DNA from: a virus | Direction: 5' to 3' (one strand) | Length of the DNA: 64,000 nucleotides | IMG/VR virus record: IMGVR_UViG_3300032331_002067 | Location: 1 to 64,000 of that record | Part shown: positions 30,366 to 62,807 of the stretch, in pieces | Position numbering within the stretch: position 1 is the first letter of the stretch | How the letters are laid out: every line of letters begins with the position of its first letter | Notes under the pieces: model-generated | What the model was told of the DNA's origin: nothing | Seen by the model: only the letters and a program-made list of their open reading frames with translations | Database searches by the model: none | Position numbers and translations under genes: made by a program

Positions 30366-30593
30366 TTTATTTCAAAAGGCTTGAGCTGCCAAAAAATGTA
30401 TACTAAAATTTGCTGAAAAGTAAATCTAAACAGTGGGGCGTTCAAACTTTATTAAATGATTTAATATCAACCATTCCCGATCCTTGATCGCCGGCTTTAA
30501 TAAACTATTTACAAAGAGCTTAACTATCACGATCTTCTCGATTTATTTTCTGGCGCACAATAAAAGTTTTTTCTAACATTTTCTTGGTGCATG

Positions 30594-36767: not shown

Positions 36768-37053
36768 AAACAAAGAGCGTGAGCTAACACATGAAGAATT
36801 AGAAATGGAAGCCGATGCAGCATTGGATATTGAATACCAAGCTCATCTTAAAGGTATTTCGGTTCAAGACTACATGGATTTAATGACATTAAGACTTAAT
36901 CAAGTCCATCAGGCAATTGATGATGATTATGAAATTGGTGATGAATATGATTGGGATAGATCAGATAGAAGCCAATATTGTAAGCATGGTAAATTCATTG
37001 GTTCTTGGTGGGGACCAGACATTCTTTGTGGTTATTGTGAAGCCGGAGAATAA
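36751..37053 (+). CDS. Hypothetical protein
   Basis: C-terminal CKHG...CGYCE. Confidence 0.55.
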   Translation: MNLEYENKERELTHEELEMEADAALDIEYQAHLKGISVQDYMDLMTLRLNQVHQAIDDDYEIGDEYDWDRSDRSQYCKHGKFIGSWWGPDILCGYCEAGE

Positions 37054-37261
37054 ACATAGAATCTTAGCGCATACTAAAATTCACCAAAAAATAAAGATAA
37101 ACAAACGGGCGTAAGCCTAAAAGGAAAGATAATGGAAAATCAAAACACTGCACTATTTAGTGCATCAATGGTATTGACAGCATATGTCGATGAAAATGGA
37201 AATGTTAAATATGTAAAGTCATCTTGGGATGAACTTTTCGAAAAAGAGAAAGAAGAAGAAA

Positions 37262-45529: not shown

Positions 45530-45633
45530 CTATACCCAAAAACAAGTAAAGAAAGGCATAAAGATTTGAGCGCATACTCAATTTATCCAAAAAGTAAACC
45601 TAAACAAGATGGCGTAAAGCTAAAAGGAAAAAA

Positions 45634-53296: not shown

Positions 53297-53330
53297 CACA
53301 CAGGTATATACACATATCTGTGGATTACAT

Positions 53331-53339
53331 TGTGGATAA
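53331..53339 (-). promoter_or_regulatory. DnaA box (perfect TTATCCACA); second perfect copy at 53584-53592, near-matches at 53306 and 53319
   Basis: tgtggataa on +. Confidence 0.65.
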
Positions 53340-53432
53340 GCTACCCGTATAGATACCGTATAGTAGCAATCATGTAGTAAGCGCTCAACATGGCGCAAAT
53401 ATATACTAATTAGTAGTTAGTAACATAGCAAT

Positions 53433-53479
53433 TAAAAGCCTTAGAGGTAAGTTAAATCTTATCTTTAGGGCTTTTTTTT
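53433..53479 (+). terminator. Terminator ending the + early block
   Basis: aaaagccttagaggtaag...cttatctttagggc-T8. Confidence 0.75.
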
Positions 53480-53563
53480 GTGCCTAAAATCAGCATAAAG
53501 TAAAGAATAATCGATAAAAAACGATCAAAACATAGCAAAAACATACTATTTTGTATCAAAACA

Positions 53564-53579
53564 TCGAACATTTGTTCGT
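53564..53579. promoter_or_regulatory. LexA/SOS box of Gram-positive/actinobacterial type
   Basis: TCGAAC-ATTT-GTTCGT vs consensus TCGAAC-N4-GTTCGA. Confidence 0.65.
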
Positions 53580-54268
53580 ATGTTGTGGATAACTTCGGAT
53601 ATGTACTAAAATTAAAGGTAAAGTTAAAGAAAAACAGCCTACATTAGAGAGCTGAATGCGTATTCGCCGGCTTTGTTCTATCTATAGCTATCTCTATCCC
53701 TATATATAAGCTAGAAGACTATCTAACCCGGAACTTTGCGGGAAAGCTCATAATTTGAGAATGTATAAGTGCCCCTTACCCTATATATATCCCTAGCTAT
53801 AAAGTAAATAAGAATATTTGAAGGTATTTACCCCGATAGTTAATGTATTAGAGAATGAGGTAGAGAATGTGATAGTAGATATCCCAAATGCCGGCGATAA
53901 TAATGTGAAAGTTACGGGCTTGTAATTTGAGTCATATATTCACCTATATATGTACAGATATACCTAGGGGAATAGATAAACCAATAGCCCCGTCTTATTC
54001 CTCAGACCCCATAATTTGAAAGGGATACTGATCCCTTACCCTTATCTTAAATTGAAATAGAAATTTAAACTTAATAAAAGAAAGATTCATCATGATTAGT
54101 AAATTCATTAAATTAATGAGAAAATTAAAGTTAAATTTAATTGGTGTCCAAAACGCTGAAGCGTTTATGGTACCCCAACCATAATTTGAAAGTTAAGGTG
54201 GTCCCTTACCGTATAGGTATCGTTTGGAGAATGTATTAAATTAATAAGAAAGATAAAGGTAAACGAAA

Positions 54269-54343
54269 CTGGTGTTCAAGTGCTTTAGCACGCCCAGAAC
54301 ACCAGCGATTTTGGGCAAAAAAAAACCACGCCTTTCGGCGTGG
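54269..54343. repeat. Hairpin element type A plus minus-strand terminator (copy 1)
   Basis: ctggtgttc-aagtgctttagcac-gccca-gaacaccag, then cgattttgggc-A9-ccacgcc/ggcgtgg. Confidence 0.8.
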
Positions 54344-54379
54344 AAAAAACTTTCGTTTATTTTTTCGGTTTCACTTTCG

Positions 54380-54730
54380 CTAAGCGTTCGCCTTGCGAGA
54401 GATAACCATTCTGCCATCGTCAAGCCAGTTGATTTGGATTGCAATCCCCAACTTTTCCGAAACACTTTCGGCACGATTTCGGTATTTCATCTTTTCGGCT
54501 TGAATCTTCGTTGAATCTTGGTTGAGATTCACCGTTGCTTCAGACCAAACGAATGCGTCACCGATTTCGTTGGGGTCTAATGACAGAATGTCTGTCGCCA
54601 ATACAGGGTTTTCGTATGGGGGTTTCCCACGCTTGACCAACTTGGATTGGATTTCGGAAAGGTTTACCTTTTGGTTTGCCTTTTTGGGTTTGTCGCCTGC
54701 GTTATCGCTCGGCATGGTTGTTGTAGCCAC
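54380..54730 (-). CDS. Small putative DNA-binding protein, paralogue 1 (leaderless GTG)
   Basis: KRGKPPYENPVLATDILSLDP..GDAF.WSEATVNL..KMKYRNRA; GTG 6 nt after the -10. Confidence 0.75.
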   Translation of the reverse strand: MATTTMPSDNAGDKPKKANQKVNLSEIQSKLVKRGKPPYENPVLATDILSLDPNEIGDAFVWSEATVNLNQDSTKIQAEKMKYRNRAESVSEKLGIAIQINWLDDGRMVISRKANA

Positions 54731-54736
54731 ATCTAC

Positions 54737-54768
54737 ATAATACGAATGGGCTTGGGTTATGTATTCAA
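54737..54768 (-). promoter_or_regulatory. Cassette promoter P1
   Basis: TTGAATACA...TATTAT, 32 bp; same geometry in six copies. Confidence 0.7.
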
Positions 54769-54793
54769 TAATCGTAAATAATAGACCCAGAAC

Positions 54794-54835
54794 GGCGGGC
54801 GCACGAAGTTCGCTGAAGCTCTCCGCACGCCCGTC
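54794..54835. repeat. Hairpin element type B (copy 1)
   Basis: ggcgggcg...gctgaagc...cgca-cgcccgtc. Confidence 0.7.
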
Positions 54836-54926
54836 ATGATTTGAATGGTAATTTGAATCCTTACGGAGATCCTTACCATGATTTGAAAATGTGAATGAAA
54901 TTTTACTCATAGCTACACCGGTAGAA

Positions 54927-55002
54927 GCTGGCGTTCAAGTGCTTTAGCACGACCCGAACGCCAGCGATTTTGGGCAAAAAAAAACTCGCCCCGAGGGGCG
55001 AG
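54927..55002. repeat. Hairpin element type A plus minus-strand terminator (copy 2)
   Basis: gctggcgttc/gaacgccagc, with a compensatory change relative to copy 1. Confidence 0.8.
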
Positions 55003-55033
55003 CCAAAAAAACTTTTTTTGTGTGGGGGGGATG

Positions 55034-55366
55034 TTACTGAGGAGTACCGAGGGAGATAATCATTTTTCCGTCATCCTGCCAGTTGATAGCGATGGTTACG
55101 CCACACTTCTCAGCAACGCTGAGGGCACGATTACGGTACTTCATTTTCTCTGCTTGTACCTTGTCCTGTGGTGCTGTGAGGTTCACAGTCGCTTCCGACC
55201 AGTAGAAGGCATCGCCCTCAACTGTTGGGTCAAGACTGAGAATGTCAGTAGCGAGCACTGGGTTCTCATAGGGGGGCTTGCCTCGCTTCACCAAGTTAGC
55301 CTTGATGCTGTTGAGGTTCACCTTTTTGTTTGGTTCCGCTTTGCGGTCACCTGTGTTATTTGCCAC
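55034..55366 (-). CDS. Small putative DNA-binding protein, paralogue 2 (leaderless GTG)
   Basis: Highly similar to the 54380-54730 protein. Confidence 0.8.
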   Translation of the reverse strand: MANNTGDRKAEPNKKVNLNSIKANLVKRGKPPYENPVLATDILSLDPTVEGDAFYWSEATVNLTAPQDKVQAEKMKYRNRALSVAEKCGVTIAINWQDDGKMIISLGTPQ

Positions 55367-55372
55367 GAGATA

Positions 55373-55589
55373 ACTATACCTATGGGGTTCACCTGTGTAT
55401 CCAATACCTACTAAATACTCTCATAGATTAGACCCAAACTGGCTGGTGCTTAAAAGAGCTGAAGCTCTTCCGCACACCAGACCATCTTGTGTATAGAGAG
55501 AGCGCATACTCAATCTCTCTGACTGTCCGTCTGGGTCGGCTTGGCGTTAGGCACAAAAAAAGGGAGAGAGCCGAAGCCCTCTCCCTTTT
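55373..55589. repeat. Inter-cassette element: promoter P2 (55373-55404), hairpin B (55443-55480), GCGCATACTCAA box, terminator (55555-55589)
   Basis: Aligns with three following copies; UUCG-loop terminator on the minus strand. Confidence 0.8.
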
Positions 55590-55608
55590 CGTCAGCCCGC
55601 AAGTGATT

Positions 55609-55881
55609 CTAGCGGTTTGCTTTGCTTACTACTGGACTTGACTTTGCGCCGACTGTCCATGAGATGGACACGGGCTTACCAAGCCTCATAGAGATGGTAT
55701 GTATGCGGTTGCGATACTTCATCTTTTGAGTGTGATTGCTCTGAGTGACACGAATATCACTCAAGACAATCTCATCAGTTGTCTTTTTGAGAAGGCGTAG
55801 AGCCTGCTCAATGTTTGCGTCAGAGAATGGGGGTCGCCCACGCTTGACGATTGTTGCTGTACCTTTAGGCTGAACTTTCAT
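55609..55881 (-). CDS. Small basic putative DNA-binding protein, paralogue 3
   Basis: IVKRGRPPF...KMKYRNRI...LG..V.ISW; SD gtagga before ATG 55881. Confidence 0.75.
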   Translation of the reverse strand: MKVQPKGTATIVKRGRPPFSDANIEQALRLLKKTTDEIVLSDIRVTQSNHTQKMKYRNRIHTISMRLGKPVSISWTVGAKSSPVVSKANR

Positions 55882-55930
55882 GATTCCTACTTTCGTTGGG
55901 TTTAGGTTCACCGTTGGGCTGACATCTATA

Positions 55931-56134
55931 ACTATACCTATGGGTTGAATATATGTATTCAATATGAGAATATATAGACCCTAGATTCGCTGGCGTTTAA
56001 GAAGTCTGAAGCCCTCTCGCACACCAGCTCGCTTAGGTAGGAAGAGAATGTGTACTCAATTCCAATGGATCGCCTGTCCGGGTCGGAGTGGTGTTAGACA
56101 AAAAAAAGAGGGGGTCTTGCGACCCCCCCTCTTT
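55931..56134. repeat. Inter-cassette element: P3, hairpin B (55989-56028), box, terminator
   Basis: Alignment with the other copies. Confidence 0.8.
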
Positions 56135-56147
56135 CGGAGTGTGTGAC

Positions 56148-56543
56148 CTAGGCGAAGGCTAGGAACTCAACGATTGCCTGTGAGTAAAGGTGACCCTCCA
56201 CTTGCATATTCTCACCCAACAATGCCTCAACCGCTTTCACGGCTGGTAGCAATGTTTCCTGAATGGTGAACAATGTCTCGTAGTAGGTAGCCTTCGTGAC
56301 TGTCTCGCTATCGTCACGGGTCACTGTTCTAATGACTGTCTGAGTAGCGTCTAGGAGTGTCTCACCCGTTGAGCGGGCTTGTTCTAGGAAGAACATATGA
56401 GTATCTCCTGACATATGGTCAGACTGAATCATGACCTTTATAAATGCCTTAGTGAATATCTCCACGAAGGTGTTGAGTGTGCTTGCGAACACATTCAGAC
56501 TAAGTATCTGAAGTGGCTCGCAGGGTTCAAGTAGTGGTTCCAA
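56148..56543 (-). CDS. Hypothetical helical protein (cassette 4)
   Basis: SD gaaagg then TTG; bounded by promoter and terminator. Confidence 0.6.
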   Translation of the reverse strand: MEPLLEPCEPLQILSLNVFASTLNTFVEIFTKAFIKVMIQSDHMSGDTHMFFLEQARSTGETLLDATQTVIRTVTRDDSETVTKATYYETLFTIQETLLPAVKAVEALLGENMQVEGHLYSQAIVEFLAFA

Positions 56544-56587
56544 TGTTACCTTTCCGCAGTTCATTTGTTCACTGCTTCCATACACCT

Positions 56588-56811
56588 ATATTACTATCGG
56601 GTTTAGAATATGTATTCAATATCGGGATATACCTAGACCCACATTGGTTGGTGCTAAAGGAAGCTTAAGCCTCCTCGCACACCAAACGAACATCGGTACG
56701 GGAAGACGATCAGTGTAGAGAGAACGCATACTCAACTCTATAGACTGTCCGTACCGAATGGATTGGAGTAGAGACAAAAAAAAGAACCGTACTGGCTGTA
56801 CGGTTCTCTTT
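56588..56811. repeat. Inter-cassette element: P4, hairpin B (56648-56685), box, terminator
   Basis: Alignment with the other copies. Confidence 0.8.
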
Positions 56812-56820
56812 CTTGGGGGT

Positions 56821-57033
56821 CTAATCGTTTGGTCGGTATGTCTCGTACCCATAGGGGTCGTAGATAGTGGTCGTGGTCTCGCAAGGGTAGTGAAACTCTT
56901 GGCAGTCGGGGATACCCTTTCCCCCCCTCTCACCGATAATGAAGCAGGCGATAAGTATCGCATACGCAAGGCTCACCCAAAAGATGAACCTCACGAATGA
57001 GCGAATACGGTAGTAGGTAGGTGAGTGCCCCAT
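56821..57033 (-). CDS. Small membrane protein (cassette 5, gene 2)
   Basis: TAATG-coupled; FVRFIFWVSLAYAILIACFII TM helix. Confidence 0.6.
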   Translation of the reverse strand: MGHSPTYYRIRSFVRFIFWVSLAYAILIACFIIGERGGKGIPDCQEFHYPCETTTTIYDPYGYETYRPND

Positions 57034-57296
57034 TACAAGCACCTCGGGCACTTGCAGGGGGCAGGCTCGCAACACTCAGTAGCGTTGGTCAGTATCTCAA
57101 ACTTACGCAACCCTTTGAGGATTGCGGGGTTGAGGTAAAGGTTCTCTGTCCAACCTTCGTACTGAGCCTCACACATTGCCTTGCAAGCCTCATAGATAGA
57201 GAACTCATTAGGGTGAGTTCGTAGTGTCCAATACATGTCCCAGTTCTTAGGGAACTGGGTTGCCTCTGCGATAGCAGTCAGCGGGTTTATTCCCAT
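57033..57296 (-). CDS. Hypothetical protein with Cys-rich C-terminus (cassette 5, leaderless ATG)
   Basis: ATG 6 nt after TATAGT; CCEPAPCKCPRC. Confidence 0.6.
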   Translation of the reverse strand: MGINPLTAIAEATQFPKNWDMYWTLRTHPNEFSIYEACKAMCEAQYEGWTENLYLNPAILKGLRKFEILTNATECCEPAPCKCPRCL

Positions 57297-57302
57297 ACAC
57301 AC

Positions 57303-57530
57303 ACTATACCTATGAGGTTAGAATGTGTATACAAAATGAGAGAATACCTACCCCCTTACACGCTGGTGTTTAAGAAGGCTTAAGCCTTCCCGCACTCCAG
57401 CGATTCTAGATCTATCACCGTTCCCCTGAGAGGTCGTGTATAGAGAGAGCGCATACTCAACCCTATGGGCTGTCCGCCTCGGTAGGAATGGTGTTAGGCA
57501 AAAAAAAGAGCCAGCCCGAAGGCTGGCTCT
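57303..57530. repeat. Inter-cassette element: P5, hairpin B (57361-57402), box, terminator
   Basis: Alignment with the other copies. Confidence 0.8.
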
Positions 57531-57555
57531 CTCTCTTGGGGGATTGTTGGGGGTC

Positions 57556-57888
57556 TTAGTAGTTGCGACCATTCGCATCGGTTACCTTGTAGCCCGACTT
57601 GACGAGCAAGGCAATGGCTAGGTCGGCATCGCTTGATACTCGCTCACGAATAGGTGACTTTACCTCGTAGCCTGCCATGAGTAATTCGTTCATTGCGCTT
57701 TCTACGATAGCCTCACGAGCCTTTATGTGGAGTTTGCTTGCTGTCTTGACCATGTAGGCGAGTTGGTCGTCAAACATTTTGGCGTATGCTACGGAGAACT
57801 TTACGCCCTCGCTTGCGACTTCCATGTTGCGTAGTTGAACGCAAGCCTCCTTGAAGGCTTCTTGTATAAGGTTAGTATCGTGTGACAT
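57556..57888 (-). CDS. Hypothetical protein (cassette 6)
   Basis: SD gaaagga; internal repeat A..LL..GY.V. Confidence 0.65.
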   Translation of the reverse strand: MSHDTNLIQEAFKEACVQLRNMEVASEGVKFSVAYAKMFDDQLAYMVKTASKLHIKAREAIVESAMNELLMAGYEVKSPIRERVSSDADLAIALLVKSGYKVTDANGRNY

Positions 57889-57938
57889 GGATTCCTTTCT
57901 CGCCCGTCAGTTGTTCGGGGCGTTGCTTCCATGTCATA

Positions 57939-58034
57939 ACTATACCTATGGGCTGAAAATGTGTATTCAATCTAGGGAATAAACAAACCCCTACCCTGCG
58001 GGCGTAAAGCGAAGCTGAAGCTTAGCACGCCCGC
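57939..58034. repeat. Promoter P6 plus hairpin B (57998-58034)
   Basis: TTGAATACA...TATAGT; gcgggcg...aagctgaagctt..gca-cgcccgc. Confidence 0.75.
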
Positions 58035-58209
58035 CTATTGACTCCCCAAACAGAGGAAAACGAAAAACAAAAAAATAACGCAGTAGCATGCTACGGATAT
58101 ATACTCAAATTTTCTAAAAAACGGGGTCGGCTGCAAGTGCCGGGTTTTGGTTTAGAAAACGGGGGAGATGGGGGGTTGAGTGCGTATTGCTCCCAGAGCT
58201 GAGCTGCTG

Positions 58210-58322: not shown

Positions 58323-59093
58323 TCAATTTGTATTCACTTCTACATTTATCTCTAGAATCTTATTGGAGGAATGTTGAGCTACATTATCTTGTCCTATGTT
58401 AGTGATCTCGTATCCGAGAGACTCAATGTAGGAGAATAGATCTTGTCTCCGGGGCTGGAACCATTCCTTGTTTGCCCACGCTTCAAAGAGAATAGGTGGG
58501 AACCCATTTCGCTCAATAGTATTTTTTGCGCCCACGAGAACAGCGAGTTCCAAGCCTTCTACATCGATTTTGATGAGCTTGATATCGTTCATCTCAAGTG
58601 AGTCCAATTTTAAGACAGAAATCAATTCCGTGTTACCACTGGAGGTACACTCATAACCGTTCTCACGCACCTCGTGATCAAGGCTAAAGGCTCCTACATT
58701 CAATTCTGTGGAATAGTCCGGCAACTGAATATAAAACGAATCTGGCTCGTATGACAAACCGAAGTTTTTGGCGAATACATTGTCACACCTGTTGAGTAAG
58801 ATATTTGAACAAAGCTGGTAAAACACGATTCTTTGCGGTTCAAAGGCATGGAACTCAAACTGTGGATACTTCTTTGCTAACGGCACACAAAAGCTTCCTA
58901 CATTGGCTCCGATGTCCAAGACCAAACCCTGCTCACCAATCCTGAGATAGTGATCCAAGAACATTCCTGAGAATGTGAGAATGTGTGGCTCATGCCCAAC
59001 TTTATTCTTTAAGGCATCTGAGATGAGATCATCTTTATCAAACAAGAAAAAGCGACAATCCCCTCCGTCATATATTGAAGATGATGGAATCAT
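58323..59093 (-). CDS. FkbM-family methyltransferase
   Basis: LDIGANVG, AFEPQ, LIKIDVEGLE..VL.GA..TI....P.I.FE. Confidence 0.9.
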   Translation of the reverse strand: MIPSSSIYDGGDCRFFLFDKDDLISDALKNKVGHEPHILTFSGMFLDHYLRIGEQGLVLDIGANVGSFCVPLAKKYPQFEFHAFEPQRIVFYQLCSNILLNRCDNVFAKNFGLSYEPDSFYIQLPDYSTELNVGAFSLDHEVRENGYECTSSGNTELISVLKLDSLEMNDIKLIKIDVEGLELAVLVGAKNTIERNGFPPILFEAWANKEWFQPRRQDLFSYIESLGYEITNIGQDNVAQHSSNKILEINVEVNTN

Positions 59094-59105
59094 ACTTTCC
59101 TTTTG

Positions 59106-59324
59106 CTATTCATTATCTCTATTATACCAATGAGACTCACGATATCTCTGCATGGCGTTGATATTTGAGACTGTTTGTGCAACCTGTCGATGCCGGCGAT
59201 TCCGTGACCACAAGCTATTCTGAAACCACGAGGAAACAGCCACATACCCGGCATAACCCACACACAATATTGCAAACCACCTTGCAATCACTACATAGTA
59301 TCTTTCGGGTGCCACCTTGGTCAT
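59106..59324 (-). CDS. Small membrane protein
   Basis: Hydrophobic helix; ATGA coupling. Confidence 0.5.
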   Translation of the reverse strand: MTKVAPERYYVVIARWFAILCVGYAGYVAVSSWFQNSLWSRNRRHRQVAQTVSNINAMQRYRESHWYNRDNE

Positions 59325-59884
59325 GCCATTCCTCCATCGGGAAGGAAGTTTATGTTTATTGCGAATCTAAAAGGACTCAATACGGGATTGCTTCCCGCAT
59401 GAAGGATGTCTCCATCAAACACAACCGCCGTTCCTTTTTTGGGATATACTTCTTTTACAACATTGAGGTCGTCATCATAGAAGTATGTAGGACCGTCTGA
59501 GTCGTTCACATAGTACAGACAGACAAGATGTGGAACCAAACTGCCATCCTCTAGTTTTAAATCAGTGTGTGGTGTCTGAGGACTACACCGGGATGGGTTT
59601 GGCATCGTGACATTTACCTTTGCTCGATACAACCGGATGTCTCCATGCTTATCCTGAATAGCATTGATTATTGGCAATACAACAGGAAGATTCGGAGACT
59701 GTTTTTCTTCCCCCATCATAAAGAGATGATTGGTTAGTTGTTTACCGGAAGAGGATGAGCTGCCAGTTTCTAATGGATCGTTATGAATATTTTGAAAACG
59801 GTAAGGGAATGCGTTGCTAGAGACAAACTCTTCAATTAGGTTCTGATCCTTAACTGGTATGAAGTTTTCAAAAATATCTATCAT
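59321..59884 (-). CDS. 2OG-Fe(II) oxygenase
   Basis: PHTD (HxD), YYVNDSDG.T, FDG...HAG..P....R..ININF. Confidence 0.85.
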   Translation of the reverse strand: MIDIFENFIPVKDQNLIEEFVSSNAFPYRFQNIHNDPLETGSSSSSGKQLTNHLFMMGEEKQSPNLPVVLPIINAIQDKHGDIRLYRAKVNVTMPNPSRCSPQTPHTDLKLEDGSLVPHLVCLYYVNDSDGPTYFYDDDLNVVKEVYPKKGTAVVFDGDILHAGSNPVLSPFRFAININFLPDGGMA

Positions 59885-60043
59885 TAGTAACGCTGATTCC
59901 GCTCAAGCCTAGATATCTCACATTCTTGATTAATGATGGTGGACATCATTCCTTCAACCTTCTCCTTTAGCTTTAAATTTTCTTCTTCAAACATGGCGCA
60001 CCTATCAATCCACCATTTAATTGTCACTCTGTCCATTTGGGGA

Positions 60044-60451
60044 TCACTTTCCACTCTTGACTCTTCTTTTCTGAAGAAGGTCAAAGTCTTTAATTTTTGT
60101 TTCCCCCATGTACTCCCAAGCAAAGCCATCTTTGATCAATTGTTCATTAACAGAAGTCGGTTGGTCATCAATAAAGATCCATCCAAGAATTCTTCCGTAC
60201 TTTTCAGTGGAGTCGGGTTTCTCTGTTCTAATGACAATCTTTGTTGCAGCCTTTAGAATTTCATCTAGTCTCTTCTTTACCTCAAGACCAAGAACTTTTT
60301 CGTTCTTATCCGTTGTTCTAGATTCTGGTGTGTCAATACCGGCAAGTCTAACCCGCTGGTAATAAGAAATATTGAACCCAAGATCAATATCTACATCAAT
60401 GGTGTCACCATCAACTACTTTGTATAATTTTTTTACGACATATTCGTACAT
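60044..60451 (-). CDS. Thermonuclease (SNase-like)
   Basis: VVDGDTID..IDLGF...RVRLAGIDTPE...KYGRILG. Confidence 0.9.
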   Translation of the reverse strand: MYEYVVKKLYKVVDGDTIDVDIDLGFNISYYQRVRLAGIDTPESRTTDKNEKVLGLEVKKRLDEILKAATKIVIRTEKPDSTEKYGRILGWIFIDDQPTSVNEQLIKDGFAWEYMGETKIKDFDLLQKRRVKSGK

Positions 60452-60462
60452 ATAACCTCTTT

Positions 60463-61689
60463 CTAATTAATTTTTGGTTTTGGTGTGAACACCACTGGTA
60501 GAACTTCTATATTAGTAAATATAGTTGAATTTGGTGAGTGAATACATTCACCATTTATTTTAATATCTGGAAATCTTTTAATAATAGAAATTATAGCTAC
60601 TTCCATTTCAATTTTAGCAAGAATCATTCCAATGCATTGATGAAGTCCTCCACCAAAAGTAAGAATTTGACTTGCGTTATTTTTTCTAAAAGCAATAAGC
60701 TCATTAGGATTAGGAAAAACATCTGGGTCACGATTGCCGGAAGCAACATTAACAGATATAAGAGTTCCTTCTGGAAAGATGACTCCACGATATTCAATAT
60801 CTTCCATTGCCATCCTCAATGTTCCACGAAGAGTTGGTGTCAATCTTGCTAGCTCCTCTACTAAGTGAAGAACACGGTTATCATCCTGCAAAAGAAGATC
60901 GATTTCTTCCTGATGCTCTAGCAAATATGCCATTGATAAACTTAGTTGATTTCTAATTGTATCAATACCTGCTGTAACAATCATTTCAATAACAGCTGCT
61001 ATGTCAAAATCAGAAAGAACCTCTCCATCATCCGCTGGAGAAACAAGCTTGGAAATTACATCATGACCCGGATTCTTTCTTTTTTGTTTAATAATTTGAT
61101 CTGTAAAATTATTTATATCTGATTGTAAATTTTTAATTGTGTCAATAGTTACATCAGTATCAATATTGTATAAATCTAGAAGCGTTTTTGACCATTTATC
61201 TAAAATTTCCCAGTTTTCAATGGGAATATCAAATAAATCACAAAGAACAGCTATTGGATAAAAAGCAAATATATCTGCGGTTAAATTTGATGTACCTTTT
61301 TCTTCAATGCTATCAAGCAAGTCTGACATGATCTTTTCCATTTTTGGTTTCATATGTATTGCATTCATATATGTGAAAGCAGGCATAATCATTTTCTTTA
61401 AACGCCGATGGTCTTCTCCGTTAATTAGTAAAAGCCCTCTTTTTCTTTTTTCACGGTATTCAGGAGTCAACGCTGGATGAAGATCATTGAATACAATTAG
61501 TGGAGATTGCCATCTCTTATCTCTTAAAACAGCAAAACAATCTTGATTACGCAAAACAGCATAACCAATTCTTGTCTTTACTAGCCAAGATTGAGCAGCT
61601 AATTTTTCAGTTTCTTTAAAACCATCATGCCTTGTCAATACATTATTCATATATGGCAAATCTAATTGCTCTGCTAAATATGTCATCAT
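60463..61689 (-). CDS. Cytochrome P450
   Basis: H.RL, I-helix AGIDT, K-helix EELAR, NRDP..FP.P, heme ligand FGGGLHQCIG. Confidence 0.95.
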   Translation of the reverse strand: MMTYLAEQLDLPYMNNVLTRHDGFKETEKLAAQSWLVKTRIGYAVLRNQDCFAVLRDKRWQSPLIVFNDLHPALTPEYREKRKRGLLLINGEDHRRLKKMIMPAFTYMNAIHMKPKMEKIMSDLLDSIEEKGTSNLTADIFAFYPIAVLCDLFDIPIENWEILDKWSKTLLDLYNIDTDVTIDTIKNLQSDINNFTDQIIKQKRKNPGHDVISKLVSPADDGEVLSDFDIAAVIEMIVTAGIDTIRNQLSLSMAYLLEHQEEIDLLLQDDNRVLHLVEELARLTPTLRGTLRMAMEDIEYRGVIFPEGTLISVNVASGNRDPDVFPNPNELIAFRKNNASQILTFGGGLHQCIGMILAKIEMEVAIISIIKRFPDIKINGECIHSPNSTIFTNIEVLPVVFTPKPKIN

Positions 61690-61819
61690 TACCTTTCATT
61701 CAAAAACCCCGGCTATTTACTTTCGTAGGGATAGTTCCGGGGCTTTCGTTGTACTATAACGGTCCCAAGGTAGCCTGCACTTGCGCAACAGACACAAAGG
61801 GTGTCATATACATTATACA

Positions 61820-61993
61820 CTATCGACTGTTTTTGTAAAATCCACTGCCCTTTAATTGCATCAAAGGGGCTGAATAGACTTGTTTTAATTCCCCATTGCA
61901 GTATTCACAATGCGTCTTCTTCTGTTCTTCTTTTATTGAACGAATCTCTGTATAGAGATGATCATTCTCACACTTATAATCGTAAATTGCCAT
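61820..61993 (-). CDS. FmdB-family Zn-ribbon protein
   Basis: MAIYDYKC...H...CEYC.......KGSGFY. Confidence 0.8.
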   Translation of the reverse strand: MAIYDYKCENDHLYTEIRSIKEEQKKTHCEYCNGELKQVYSAPLMQLKGSGFYKNSR

Positions 61994-61994
61994 G

Positions 61995-62807
61995 TTATCT
62001 AAATTTTGGGTTAGGATGATTTGGTTCCGGATAGATTGGACCCTTATAAGTATAGCTTCCGCTAGAAATATTTGCTCCACGAGAGTCGTAAACAGTATAA
62101 TTTGTTACGATTGGTCCATTTGATGTGGTGATAGGAATCTTATTATGTCTATTGATTGGTGATTCATCAATTGAATAGAAGAAATTACCATCCGTTAAGG
62201 CTTTTGGCATAAAGTCGTCATTATTAGACATGGGAAATAGAAAAGTTCCATTTATCCACTTAATTGCGATAATCGAATAACCAATAATATCCAGTAGTGT
62301 ATCCTGTAGGGATTCATTTGATGGATTTGAATCTTTTTTAATCAAATTTTCAAGACGAGCTACCTTGTCATGAATTCTAATCACCAAGCCATTAAGACCA
62401 AACTTCGCAATATTTTCAGAGCCATAGTCTCTTTGTTTTCTTGTAACAGTAAGGAGAGTCCAATCTCTGTATTCGTTCAAATCTAAATCTTTATCTATTT
62501 GTTTTAATGACAAAAATGAAAGAACAGAAAGAATACACCAATAGTTTACAATAGCCGATGCTACTTCAAAGTCATTTGTTTTGTCATGATTCCAAACTTT
62601 TACTGTGATCATATAATCAACAATAGTCCTCATATTCTCAACAAAATCATTCCCAAGAACCTTGTTACACAAAGTAACATCTCTTGTAATATCTGCAAAT
62701 AGTTCCTCATTTTCAGAAATGAATTCGAATAGCTCTTTAACAGTAAATGAAGCTGCTTCTTCCCAAGATTCTGAAAGTTTTGCTGAGAGTAGCTTAGAGA
62801 GTACCAT
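61995..62807 (-). CDS. Protein with DUF1599 (nucleotide-modification-associated domain 1)
   Basis: KQRDYG...G..G...R..DK.ARL.NL...ES..DT..D..GY. Confidence 0.75.
   Translation of the reverse strand: MVLSKLLSAKLSESWEEAASFTVKELFEFISENEELFADITRDVTLCNKVLGNDFVENMRTIVDYMITVKVWNHDKTNDFEVASAIVNYWCILSVLSFLSLKQIDKDLDLNEYRDWTLLTVTRKQRDYGSENIAKFGLNGLVIRIHDKVARLENLIKKDSNPSNESLQDTLLDIIGYSIIAIKWINGTFLFPMSNNDDFMPKALTDGNFFYSIDESPINRHNKIPITTSNGPIVTNYTVYDSRGANISSGSYTYKGPIYPEPNHPNPKFR

Follow-up and report, generated by a model that had tools for sequence, protein, structure and literature searches.

What is the role of a conserved hairpin that recurs in front of every cassette in an array of tiny phage genes? 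The question is raised by a locus in the uncultured virus record IMGVR_UViG_3300032331_002067, of which we analyzed the first 64 kb (64,000 nucleotides, referred to below as the window); the complete record is 100,001 bp long and its completeness is rated at 96%. Between 54.1 and 58.1 kb of the window, the minus strand carries six cassettes, each made up of a putative promoter, one or two small genes (numbered from g6 to g1 in the direction of transcription) and a terminator. A first-pass annotation had described these cassettes as sharing an identical promoter geometry and strong terminators, a description that we could verify in all six, and as being punctuated by a hairpin element, which we call H. 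Our analysis indicates that the locus is probably hyperplastic, an array of small, autonomous gene cassettes in which H would be a promoter-coupled, foldable boundary element, and that it probably forms an early module at the end of the genome.

Read in the sense of the genes, each intergenic region consists of a terminator, a variable element, H, a spacer, an 11-nt box and a −10 hexamer. The variable element is a sequence of ~70 nt called X in four cases and a hairpin of a second type, class A, in two. The terminators have strong GC-rich stems of 8–10 bp followed by a run of eight Ts (T8). As also reported in the first-pass annotation, the block is richer in GC than its surroundings (0.42–0.50 vs. 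0.30–0.38 in the flank with plus-strand genes).

A covariance model built from 13 copies of H matched all nine hairpins of the first-pass annotation, and these fall into three groups. Six are canonical, namely H0 at 57996–58035 (46.6 bits), H1 at 57360–57402 (55.0 bits), H2 at 56645–56687 (55.0 bits), H3 at 55987–56029 (51.0 bits), H4 at 55440–55482 (54.2 bits) and H5 at 54793–54835 (39.5 bits), H0 and H5 having a GC-rich outer stem and H5 also a longer continuous stem. The weaker matches correspond to two members of the class-A sub-class, located directly behind terminators (54925–54966 and 54266–54307), and to one degenerate copy (54138–54180). All nine fold better than dinucleotide shuffles of the same sequence, with z-scores between −3.4 and −6.1 (−4.18, −5.60, −5.54, −4.38, −4.06 and −3.43 for H0 to H5, respectively, and −6.08 for the class-A hairpin at 54925) and at most 1 in 200 shuffles folding equally well. 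The model found nothing outside the array in the 100-kb record, while H was recovered in six related freshwater arrays. In an Rfam search at a permissive E-value, a tRNA-Asn was the only feature to pass; the other hits scored below half of the gathering score of their family, and H thus corresponds to no family described there.

H contains 17–18 base pairs arranged in two stems separated by an internal loop, with a terminal loop of 4 nt, and its orientation is always that of the genes. The internal loop is smaller than first thought: part of the bases annotated as conserved and unpaired can form G-U pairs on the gene-sense strand, leaving a 2×2 internal loop. Among 21 distinct copies of the main type from six arrays, 87.3% of the cells are paired, compared to 39–50% when the pairing partner is slid along the sequence, and both sides have changed in 7 of the 17 pairs. 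One outer-stem pair occurs as U-A, A-U or C-G across copy types, and G-C and A-U are exchanged at four inner-stem pairs. The proposal that pairing is maintained while the stem sequences change is therefore borne out. RNAalifold detected H as the sole conserved structure in the region from H through to the start site. Since H covaries while the sequence of its inner stem is free to drift, it must fold at some moment.

The position of H is coupled to the promoter. In 38 of 41 units, drawn from all seven arrays (the window and six relatives), the 3′ end of H lies 27–28 nt from the box, the single large exception containing ~10 additional nt, and the most distant array, L143, maintains this gap despite a diverged spacer sequence. 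The distance from the terminator to H, in contrast, varies between 12 and 142 nt. The first-pass annotation had placed the element between terminator and promoter; the placement is correct, the fixed relationship being with the promoter and not with the terminator. Because only the gap to the box is constant, we consider H to be part of the promoter module, covering positions ~−108 to −66, rather than part of the terminator. The spacer that follows has a GGG tract at nucleotides 8–10 in 27 of 39 copies (shuffled mean 1.9) and is 73% AT thereafter. No T-run was found behind H, ruling it out as a canonical terminator. The fixed spacing to the promoter makes action at the DNA level plausible, as originally suggested, although the argument first given for it, that wobble pairs favor neither strand, fails (see below).

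The distance between the box and the −10 hexamer is constant in every unit. More than 15 cassettes of different families have an ATG or GTG codon 6–7 nt behind the hexamer, a placement that is strong evidence for the hexamer being a genuine −10 and for many of the cassette mRNAs being leaderless. The other cassettes have a conserved leader of ~45 nt ending in a Shine-Dalgarno (SD) sequence. In the latter, the predicted transcript still begins with AUGG (window positions 57932 and 56574, and the matching places in a close relative, L009); the leaderless mini open reading frame (ORF) thus created is out of frame in g6, very short in g4 and in frame with the main ORF in a 105-aa gene of L009. This class of promoter is confined to the array, with 5 matches against 0.5 expected.

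The comparison with relatives reveals the turnover of cassettes. L009, a close viral contig, was identified by a g2 protein search, and the metagenome loci L133–L141, which collapse to four distinct arrays, by a search with the protein family formed by g1, g2 and g3. The distant viral contig L143 came from a scan of H patterns; an initial scan of viral contigs with the promoter box plus GTAT gave single chance matches only. Contigs of 40 protein relatives lay outside this comparison. The punctuation is common to all seven arrays. The six closer ones have 5–8 cassettes each, drawn from 12 protein families, in a roughly maintained order (g6-like, g5, g4, variable cassettes, g2, g1) with the middle filled differently in each. 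In contigs of four lake metagenomes, single cassettes are skipped or replaced; in one of them (run X3), g3 is exchanged for 465 other letters. The ends of the joints lie in terminators (54326/55013, 55562 and 57532), in promoters (55931 and 55965) and at H (56644, 57988 and 58037). Fine mosaics also exist, in which one gene pair is separated by differing versions of the terminator, X and H, and an identical copy of H1 occurs in L140 between unrelated flanks. In L143, whose proteins are only 41–47% identical, H is still present. The g1–g3 family appears as a constant and expanding core of the arrays, with three tandem paralogues, one per cassette, in L143 (1141–2749). The flavor of the box is genome-specific, one variant occurring in 8/8 units of L140 and another in 4/4 units of L143. 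Orthologous modules are nevertheless more similar to each other (0.55) than paralogous modules within one array (0.44), ruling out a general concerted evolution of promoters inside an array. The first-pass annotation had offered a recombination-shuffled cassette array as one of its readings, and the differences in content and number across the seven arrays, together with the lake contigs, support this reading. The pattern fits homologous shuffling of the kind described for T4 rather than an integron.

The closest known parallel is indeed the promoter-early stem-loop (PeSL) cassettes of T4-type phages (Arbiol et al. 2010, PMC2839356; Comeau et al. 2014, PMC4122927). As in PeSLs, small orphan genes each have a strong early-type promoter (predicted, in our case) and a terminator; composite intergenic modules are conserved, with an AT-rich part upstream of the promoter; the cassettes lie in a hyperplastic region, where relatives differ by insertions, deletions and replacements at the modules; degraded half-modules occur (X in our case; PMC4122927); and no dedicated recombinase is known. 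In PeSLs, however, the stem-loop upstream of the promoter is the terminator, whereas here a terminator is followed by a separate hairpin that covaries, lacks a U-tract and is spaced relative to the promoter. Many of the genes here are also leaderless, the box is unusual in lying 20 nt from the −10, and the phage is not T4-like, having a DnaE-type polymerase and a capsid resembling that of Streptomyces phages. T4-like phages thus provide a precedent for the shuffling, but not for a separate, covarying hairpin locked to the promoter.

Where in the genome would such an array lie? The capsid protein and polymerase are 50% and 38% identical, respectively, to those of the ~130-kb Streptomyces phages (Stanwilliamsviridae), which points to this freshwater phage being distant kin of these siphophages. 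The array occupies the far end of a 14-kb minus-strand block (54–67.5 kb), which converges with a long plus-strand block at a gene-free zone (53.3–54.2 kb). In Streptomyces phage Moab, a syntenic minus-strand block with small genes, a methyltransferase, ThyX and tRNAs begins directly behind a terminal repeat of 712 bp; at its opposite end, this block diverges from the glycosyltransferase, ribonucleotide reductase, portal, protease and capsid genes, and the right arm ends with many small plus-strand genes. H was absent from both ends of Moab. Based on this synteny, the convergence zone is likely to be the physical end, and the array is likely the outermost part of the left arm, transcribed toward the genome end. 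The zone (53297–54260) also contains a family of 32-nt repeats in four copies, two of which lie inside the last spacers of the array, and several independent metagenome contigs end 0.3–1.1 kb past the array.

The array also has the lowest ratio of observed to expected 4-bp palindromes of all 3.5-kb segments (0.46 vs. 0.80 ± 0.08), and its coding parts are devoid of 8 of the 16 palindromic 4-bp words. Three of these words, ACGT, CGCG and GGCC, are nearly absent throughout the genome (0.0–0.05 per kb); the coding DNA of the array (54380–57888) additionally lacks AGCT, CCGG, GATC, TCGA and TTAA. All 7 AGCT and 5 TTAA sites of the array are found in intergenic modules, several of them in H loops. 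A scarcity of restriction-type palindromes would suit DNA that is the first to be exposed, as in terminal early modules. The first-pass annotation had suggested a first-injected, pre-early module, for which the palindrome ratio and the synteny with Moab lend indirect support, the timing itself being a prediction. The palindrome avoidance, the position, the acidic proteins, the AT-hook-like motif and the confident but unmatched fold of the g1–g3 family are together consistent with the array probably being an early, host-takeover or anti-defense module beside the genome end.

Such an arrangement resembles the pre-early (first-step-transfer) region of T5, which lies within a terminal repeat that is first to enter, in that small genes under strong promoters (predicted, in our case) are clustered at or in a genome end (a probable end, placed by synteny, in our case), with a gene-free, repeat-rich zone nearby. 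The host-takeover module of SPO1, to which the array can also be likened, similarly consists of small genes with strong promoters at the genome end. In the PHROG and Pfam searches, the cassette proteins showed no homology to genes of SPO1 or T5, the latter including the pre-early genes A1, A2 and dmp. In addition, the stop signal of T5 consists of a single large repeat region containing DnaA boxes (bioRxiv 10.1101/866236), whereas a hairpin precedes each promoter here.

We propose that each unit consists of a composite promoter module of ~110 bp, one or two small ORFs and a strong intrinsic terminator. The module would comprise, in order, the two-tier hairpin H (~−108 to −66), the G-tract, the AT-rich stretch, the 11-nt box over the −35 region and the −10 hexamer, followed by either a leaderless start codon 6–7 nt further on or the ~45-nt SD leader. 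The repeated modules would insulate each gene and, at the same time, supply the homology for deletion, replacement, duplication and transfer of cassettes between related phages, with no need for a dedicated recombinase, following the logic of PeSLs. H itself would most likely act on DNA, as a site capable of forming a hairpin or cruciform, and a host or phage factor bound to it would activate or shield the promoter. For the role of H, we rank a DNA-level promoter element first and an RNA insulator second; a recombination site, a non-coding RNA gene and a functionless palindrome come well behind.

Several observations weigh against this proposal. No end repeat was found in the 100,001-bp record, and the evidence for a terminal position is synteny with a phage that shares only 50% identity in the capsid protein. 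The promoters, start sites and timing are read from sequence, and a distance of 20 nt from the TTG of the box to the −10 is unusual for a sigma-70-type promoter. The constant gap between H and the box may be due in part to the shared ancestry of a short module, and the mismatched internal loop makes cruciform extrusion costly. Lastly, the gene-sense strand folds better in 39 of 43 distinct copies (by a mean of −4.1 kcal/mol), with 88 G-U pairs on this strand compared to 16 on the other, contrary to the original claim of strand-neutral wobble. This bias is easier to reconcile with an RNA or a single strand of DNA than with a duplex bound by protein.

The strand bias is the main argument for the alternative that we take most seriously, while considering it unlikely, namely that H is an RNA insulator against read-through. 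Polymerases passing the upstream terminator would transcribe H, and the hairpin and G-tract would make them pause, release the transcript or mark it for RNase III-like cleavage before the next promoter. The constant orientation of H with the genes and the GGG conserved 8–10 nt downstream agree with this idea, and the shape of H, with its two stems, small internal loop and ~17–18 pairs, recalls the RNase III sites of phage T7. Three positions next to the internal loop account for most of the bias: Watson-Crick and G-U pairs alternate there and A-C is almost never seen; outside these, the count is only 8 G-T vs. 4 A-C. Since the copies are also paralogues and the counts thus not independent, we consider the bias to be moderate evidence only. 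Furthermore, H lies behind strong terminators, so that little RNA would be expected to contain it, no U-tract follows it and the record encodes no RNase III, although a host enzyme could be used.

A more far-reaching reading, which we consider doubtful as a whole, would make H a new type of cis-element: a hairpin of folded DNA or nascent RNA, set three helical turns ahead of the promoter core. A structure-specific factor would recognize it and thereby switch on, or shield, the genes expressed first from the end at which an actinophage-like genome enters, and the element would also mark the units that are exchanged between phages. The logic would resemble that of N4, placed upstream of ordinary host-type promoters. 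The early promoters of N4 contain a DNA hairpin in which certain conserved bases are needed and the other stem bases are free provided that they pair (PMC4496689), and H is likewise tied to a promoter with non-conserved stem bases that need only pair. The N4 hairpin has a 5–7 bp stem and a 3-nt loop, is centered at −11 on the template strand and serves a giant virion RNA polymerase of ~3,500 aa (PMC4496689). H, in contrast, has 17–18 pairs, is centered at ~−87, is steadier on the non-template strand and lies upstream of an ordinary −10; its position and strand rule it out as an N4-type promoter. The longest ORF in the record is ~1,470 aa (among ORFs of at least 250 aa in the window and at least 150 aa in the rest of the record), and no sigma factor was found in the record.

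We consider it very improbable that crossovers are made at H by a dedicated recombination system that recognizes structure, whether integron-like or acting on single-stranded hairpins, and moves whole cassettes. H resembles integron attC sites in being a folded, imperfect palindrome with a central unpaired part (here a two-tier hairpin whose internal loop is conserved and whose inner stem varies), in conserving structure over sequence and in occurring once per cassette in a one-way array, and such a system could account for the different cassette content of the relatives, the identical H between unrelated flanks in the window and L140 and the contig joints at H. However, the tyrosine recombinase domain PF00589, which matched in all control genomes, and the Y1 transposase domain PF01797 are both absent from the 96%-complete record. 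Promoter and terminator are supplied by each cassette itself, H is 5′ of the gene and locked to the promoter rather than to the gene end, other joints fall in terminators and promoters rather than at one point, and the H alignment has no conserved triplet like the AAC/GTT of the R-box. The integron-like geometry suggested in the first-pass annotation is thus not upheld. H also shares with repetitive extragenic palindromic (REP) sequences and bacterial interspersed mosaic elements (BIME) the form of an imperfect palindrome of ~40 nt, with several sub-types found between genes or after terminators in a set orientation. Unlike these, it is confined to one 4-kb array and held at a fixed distance from the promoter, no Y1 (RAYT) transposase accompanies it, and one H sub-type had no exact match in 185,579 species genomes.

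It is even less probable that H has no function, being a quasi-palindrome that rides along with the promoter module, with templated repair or gene conversion maintaining its symmetry. The copies are indeed paralogues that move as blocks, an A-A mismatch is frequent at one stem position (5/21), and the greater likeness of orthologous over paralogous modules agrees with this view. On the other hand, H is retained in L143 in spite of its divergent proteins, occurs once per promoter at a fixed distance and has gone through three Watson-Crick pair types at one stem position and GC/AT exchanges at four inner-stem pairs.

The second intergenic element, X, looks like a decayed unit, comprising the 3′ half of an H hairpin, the usual gap of ~29 nt and a variant of the box without a −10. 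It has no conserved fold (three invariant pairs and no compensatory changes), which rules out X as a structured domain. The X box is kept in every lineage, even where the promoter box is altered, and the same two-part motif (the hairpin 3′ half, ~29 nt and an X-type box) is present upstream of three plus-strand genes. The conservation of the box in all lineages and its presence before plus-strand genes suggest that X may be a protein-binding site in its own right. The solo copies of the motif lie at 45537–45581, 37034–37078 and ~30396–30437 (minus sense), in the orientation opposite to the plus-strand genes, and two of the three are at syntenic places in a relative with changed spacers. On the plus strand, they have a −10-like hexamer and a shared leader, and may be plus-strand promoters or sites for a common regulator. 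Least likely of all the alternatives is that H, or X read on the plus strand from its box to a two-way terminator, constitutes intergenic small-RNA genes: the lineage-wide X box, its partner motif before three plus-strand genes (also kept in a relative), the −10-like hexamer on the plus strand and the pyrimidine-rich tails of the terminators on that side speak for it, but there is no Rfam match, X is without a conserved fold and missing from most units of L009 and of other arrays, and H folds worse on the plus strand and lacks an upstream promoter in the gene sense, so that the suggestion of a non-coding RNA array is not supported.

The individual features of the array, all on the minus strand, are as follows. 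H0 comes after the terminator behind the tRNA-Asn, and 28 nt further on begins the box of the g6 promoter (57939–57970), which consists of the box, a 16-nt gap and the −10 hexamer and is followed by the ~45-nt leader with its SD. The g6 gene (57556–57888) encodes a protein of 110 aa with no known family, homologues of which come first in four other arrays; its intrinsic terminator (57499–57538), a stem followed by T8, is followed by X (57403–57498) and H1. The g5 promoter (57303–57334) is leaderless, with a start codon 6 nt past the −10, and precedes a single cassette (56821–57296) encoding g5a, a Cys-rich protein of 87 aa, and g5b, which has 70 aa and one membrane helix. Behind its terminator (56775–56815) are X (56688–56774), H2 and the promoter of g4 (56588–56619). 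The strongly acidic g4 product (~131–138 aa; isoelectric point (pI) 4.5; 56148–56564) is encoded in 6/6 close arrays, and the g4 terminator (56099–56136) is succeeded by X (56030–56098) and H3.

The promoter of g3 extends from 55931 to 55962. The g3 protein (90 aa; 55609–55881) is basic (pI 11.4), a divergent paralogue of g1 and g2 with an AT-hook-like KRGRPP; terminator, X and H4 follow, the first two at 55553–55592 and 55483–55552, respectively. Both g2 and g1 have a leaderless GTG start. The g2 promoter (55373–55404) is the sole one in the array with a 38-nt gap from H to the box (27–28 nt in the others), and its gene (110 aa; 55034–55366) ends in a terminator at 54975–55020, with the class-A hairpin (54925–54966) beginning 11 nt past the T-run. 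After H5 come the g1 promoter (54737–54768), g1 itself (~112–115 aa; 54380–54727) and its terminator (54316–54355). A decayed last unit (54138–54307) closes the array, with a class-A hairpin (54266–54307), a degenerate box (54230–54240) and the weak H-like hairpin at 54138–54180.

None of the seven cassette proteins matched a family in PHROGs or Pfam. An AlphaFold2 model of g2 had a pLDDT of 84, with no convincing fold match (best E-value 0.19 with Foldseek; best Z 5.4 with VIA). Several cassette proteins have a pI of 4.1–4.5, and the AT-hook-like motif is carried by the g1–g3 family.

The rest of the genome encodes a core of DnaE-type polymerase, helicase, terminase, portal, protease and capsid, with further genes for ThyX, ribonucleotide reductase, P450, oxygenases and a halogenase. 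The auxiliary set is unusual for a phage in containing an FkbM-type methyltransferase, a 2-oxoglutarate (2OG)-Fe(II) oxygenase, an intact cytochrome P450 and a tryptophan halogenase (window 58323–62807 and record 64–92 kb). Related DNA is present in lake and freshwater metagenomes from many studies. A megablast of the array region against 50,697 phage records gave no matches, and neither the exact H pattern nor the g1–g3 family was present among the 185,579 species genomes. An actinobacterial host would suit both the leaderless mRNAs and the kinship with Streptomyces phages. In most H copies (e.g. 55474–55481), the 5′ arm of the outer stem presumably agrees with the Chi octamer of E. coli in 7 of its 8 positions, and shows what we take to be the T/A alternative of Haemophilus Chi variants; the GC-rich types of H do not fit this likeness, and the host is probably not a proteobacterium.

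Globally, these results extend PeSL-type modular shuffling beyond T4-like myoviruses, to a freshwater lineage with kinship to the Streptomyces siphophages, with evidence from natural populations for the turnover of single cassettes. They also provide a clean case of a structured element linked to a promoter, one that follows a strict rule of distance and of which many compensatory variants exist in nature. The twelve small orphan families, several of them very acidic and one with an AT-hook-like motif, are candidates for host-takeover or anti-defense functions in abundant lake bacteria.

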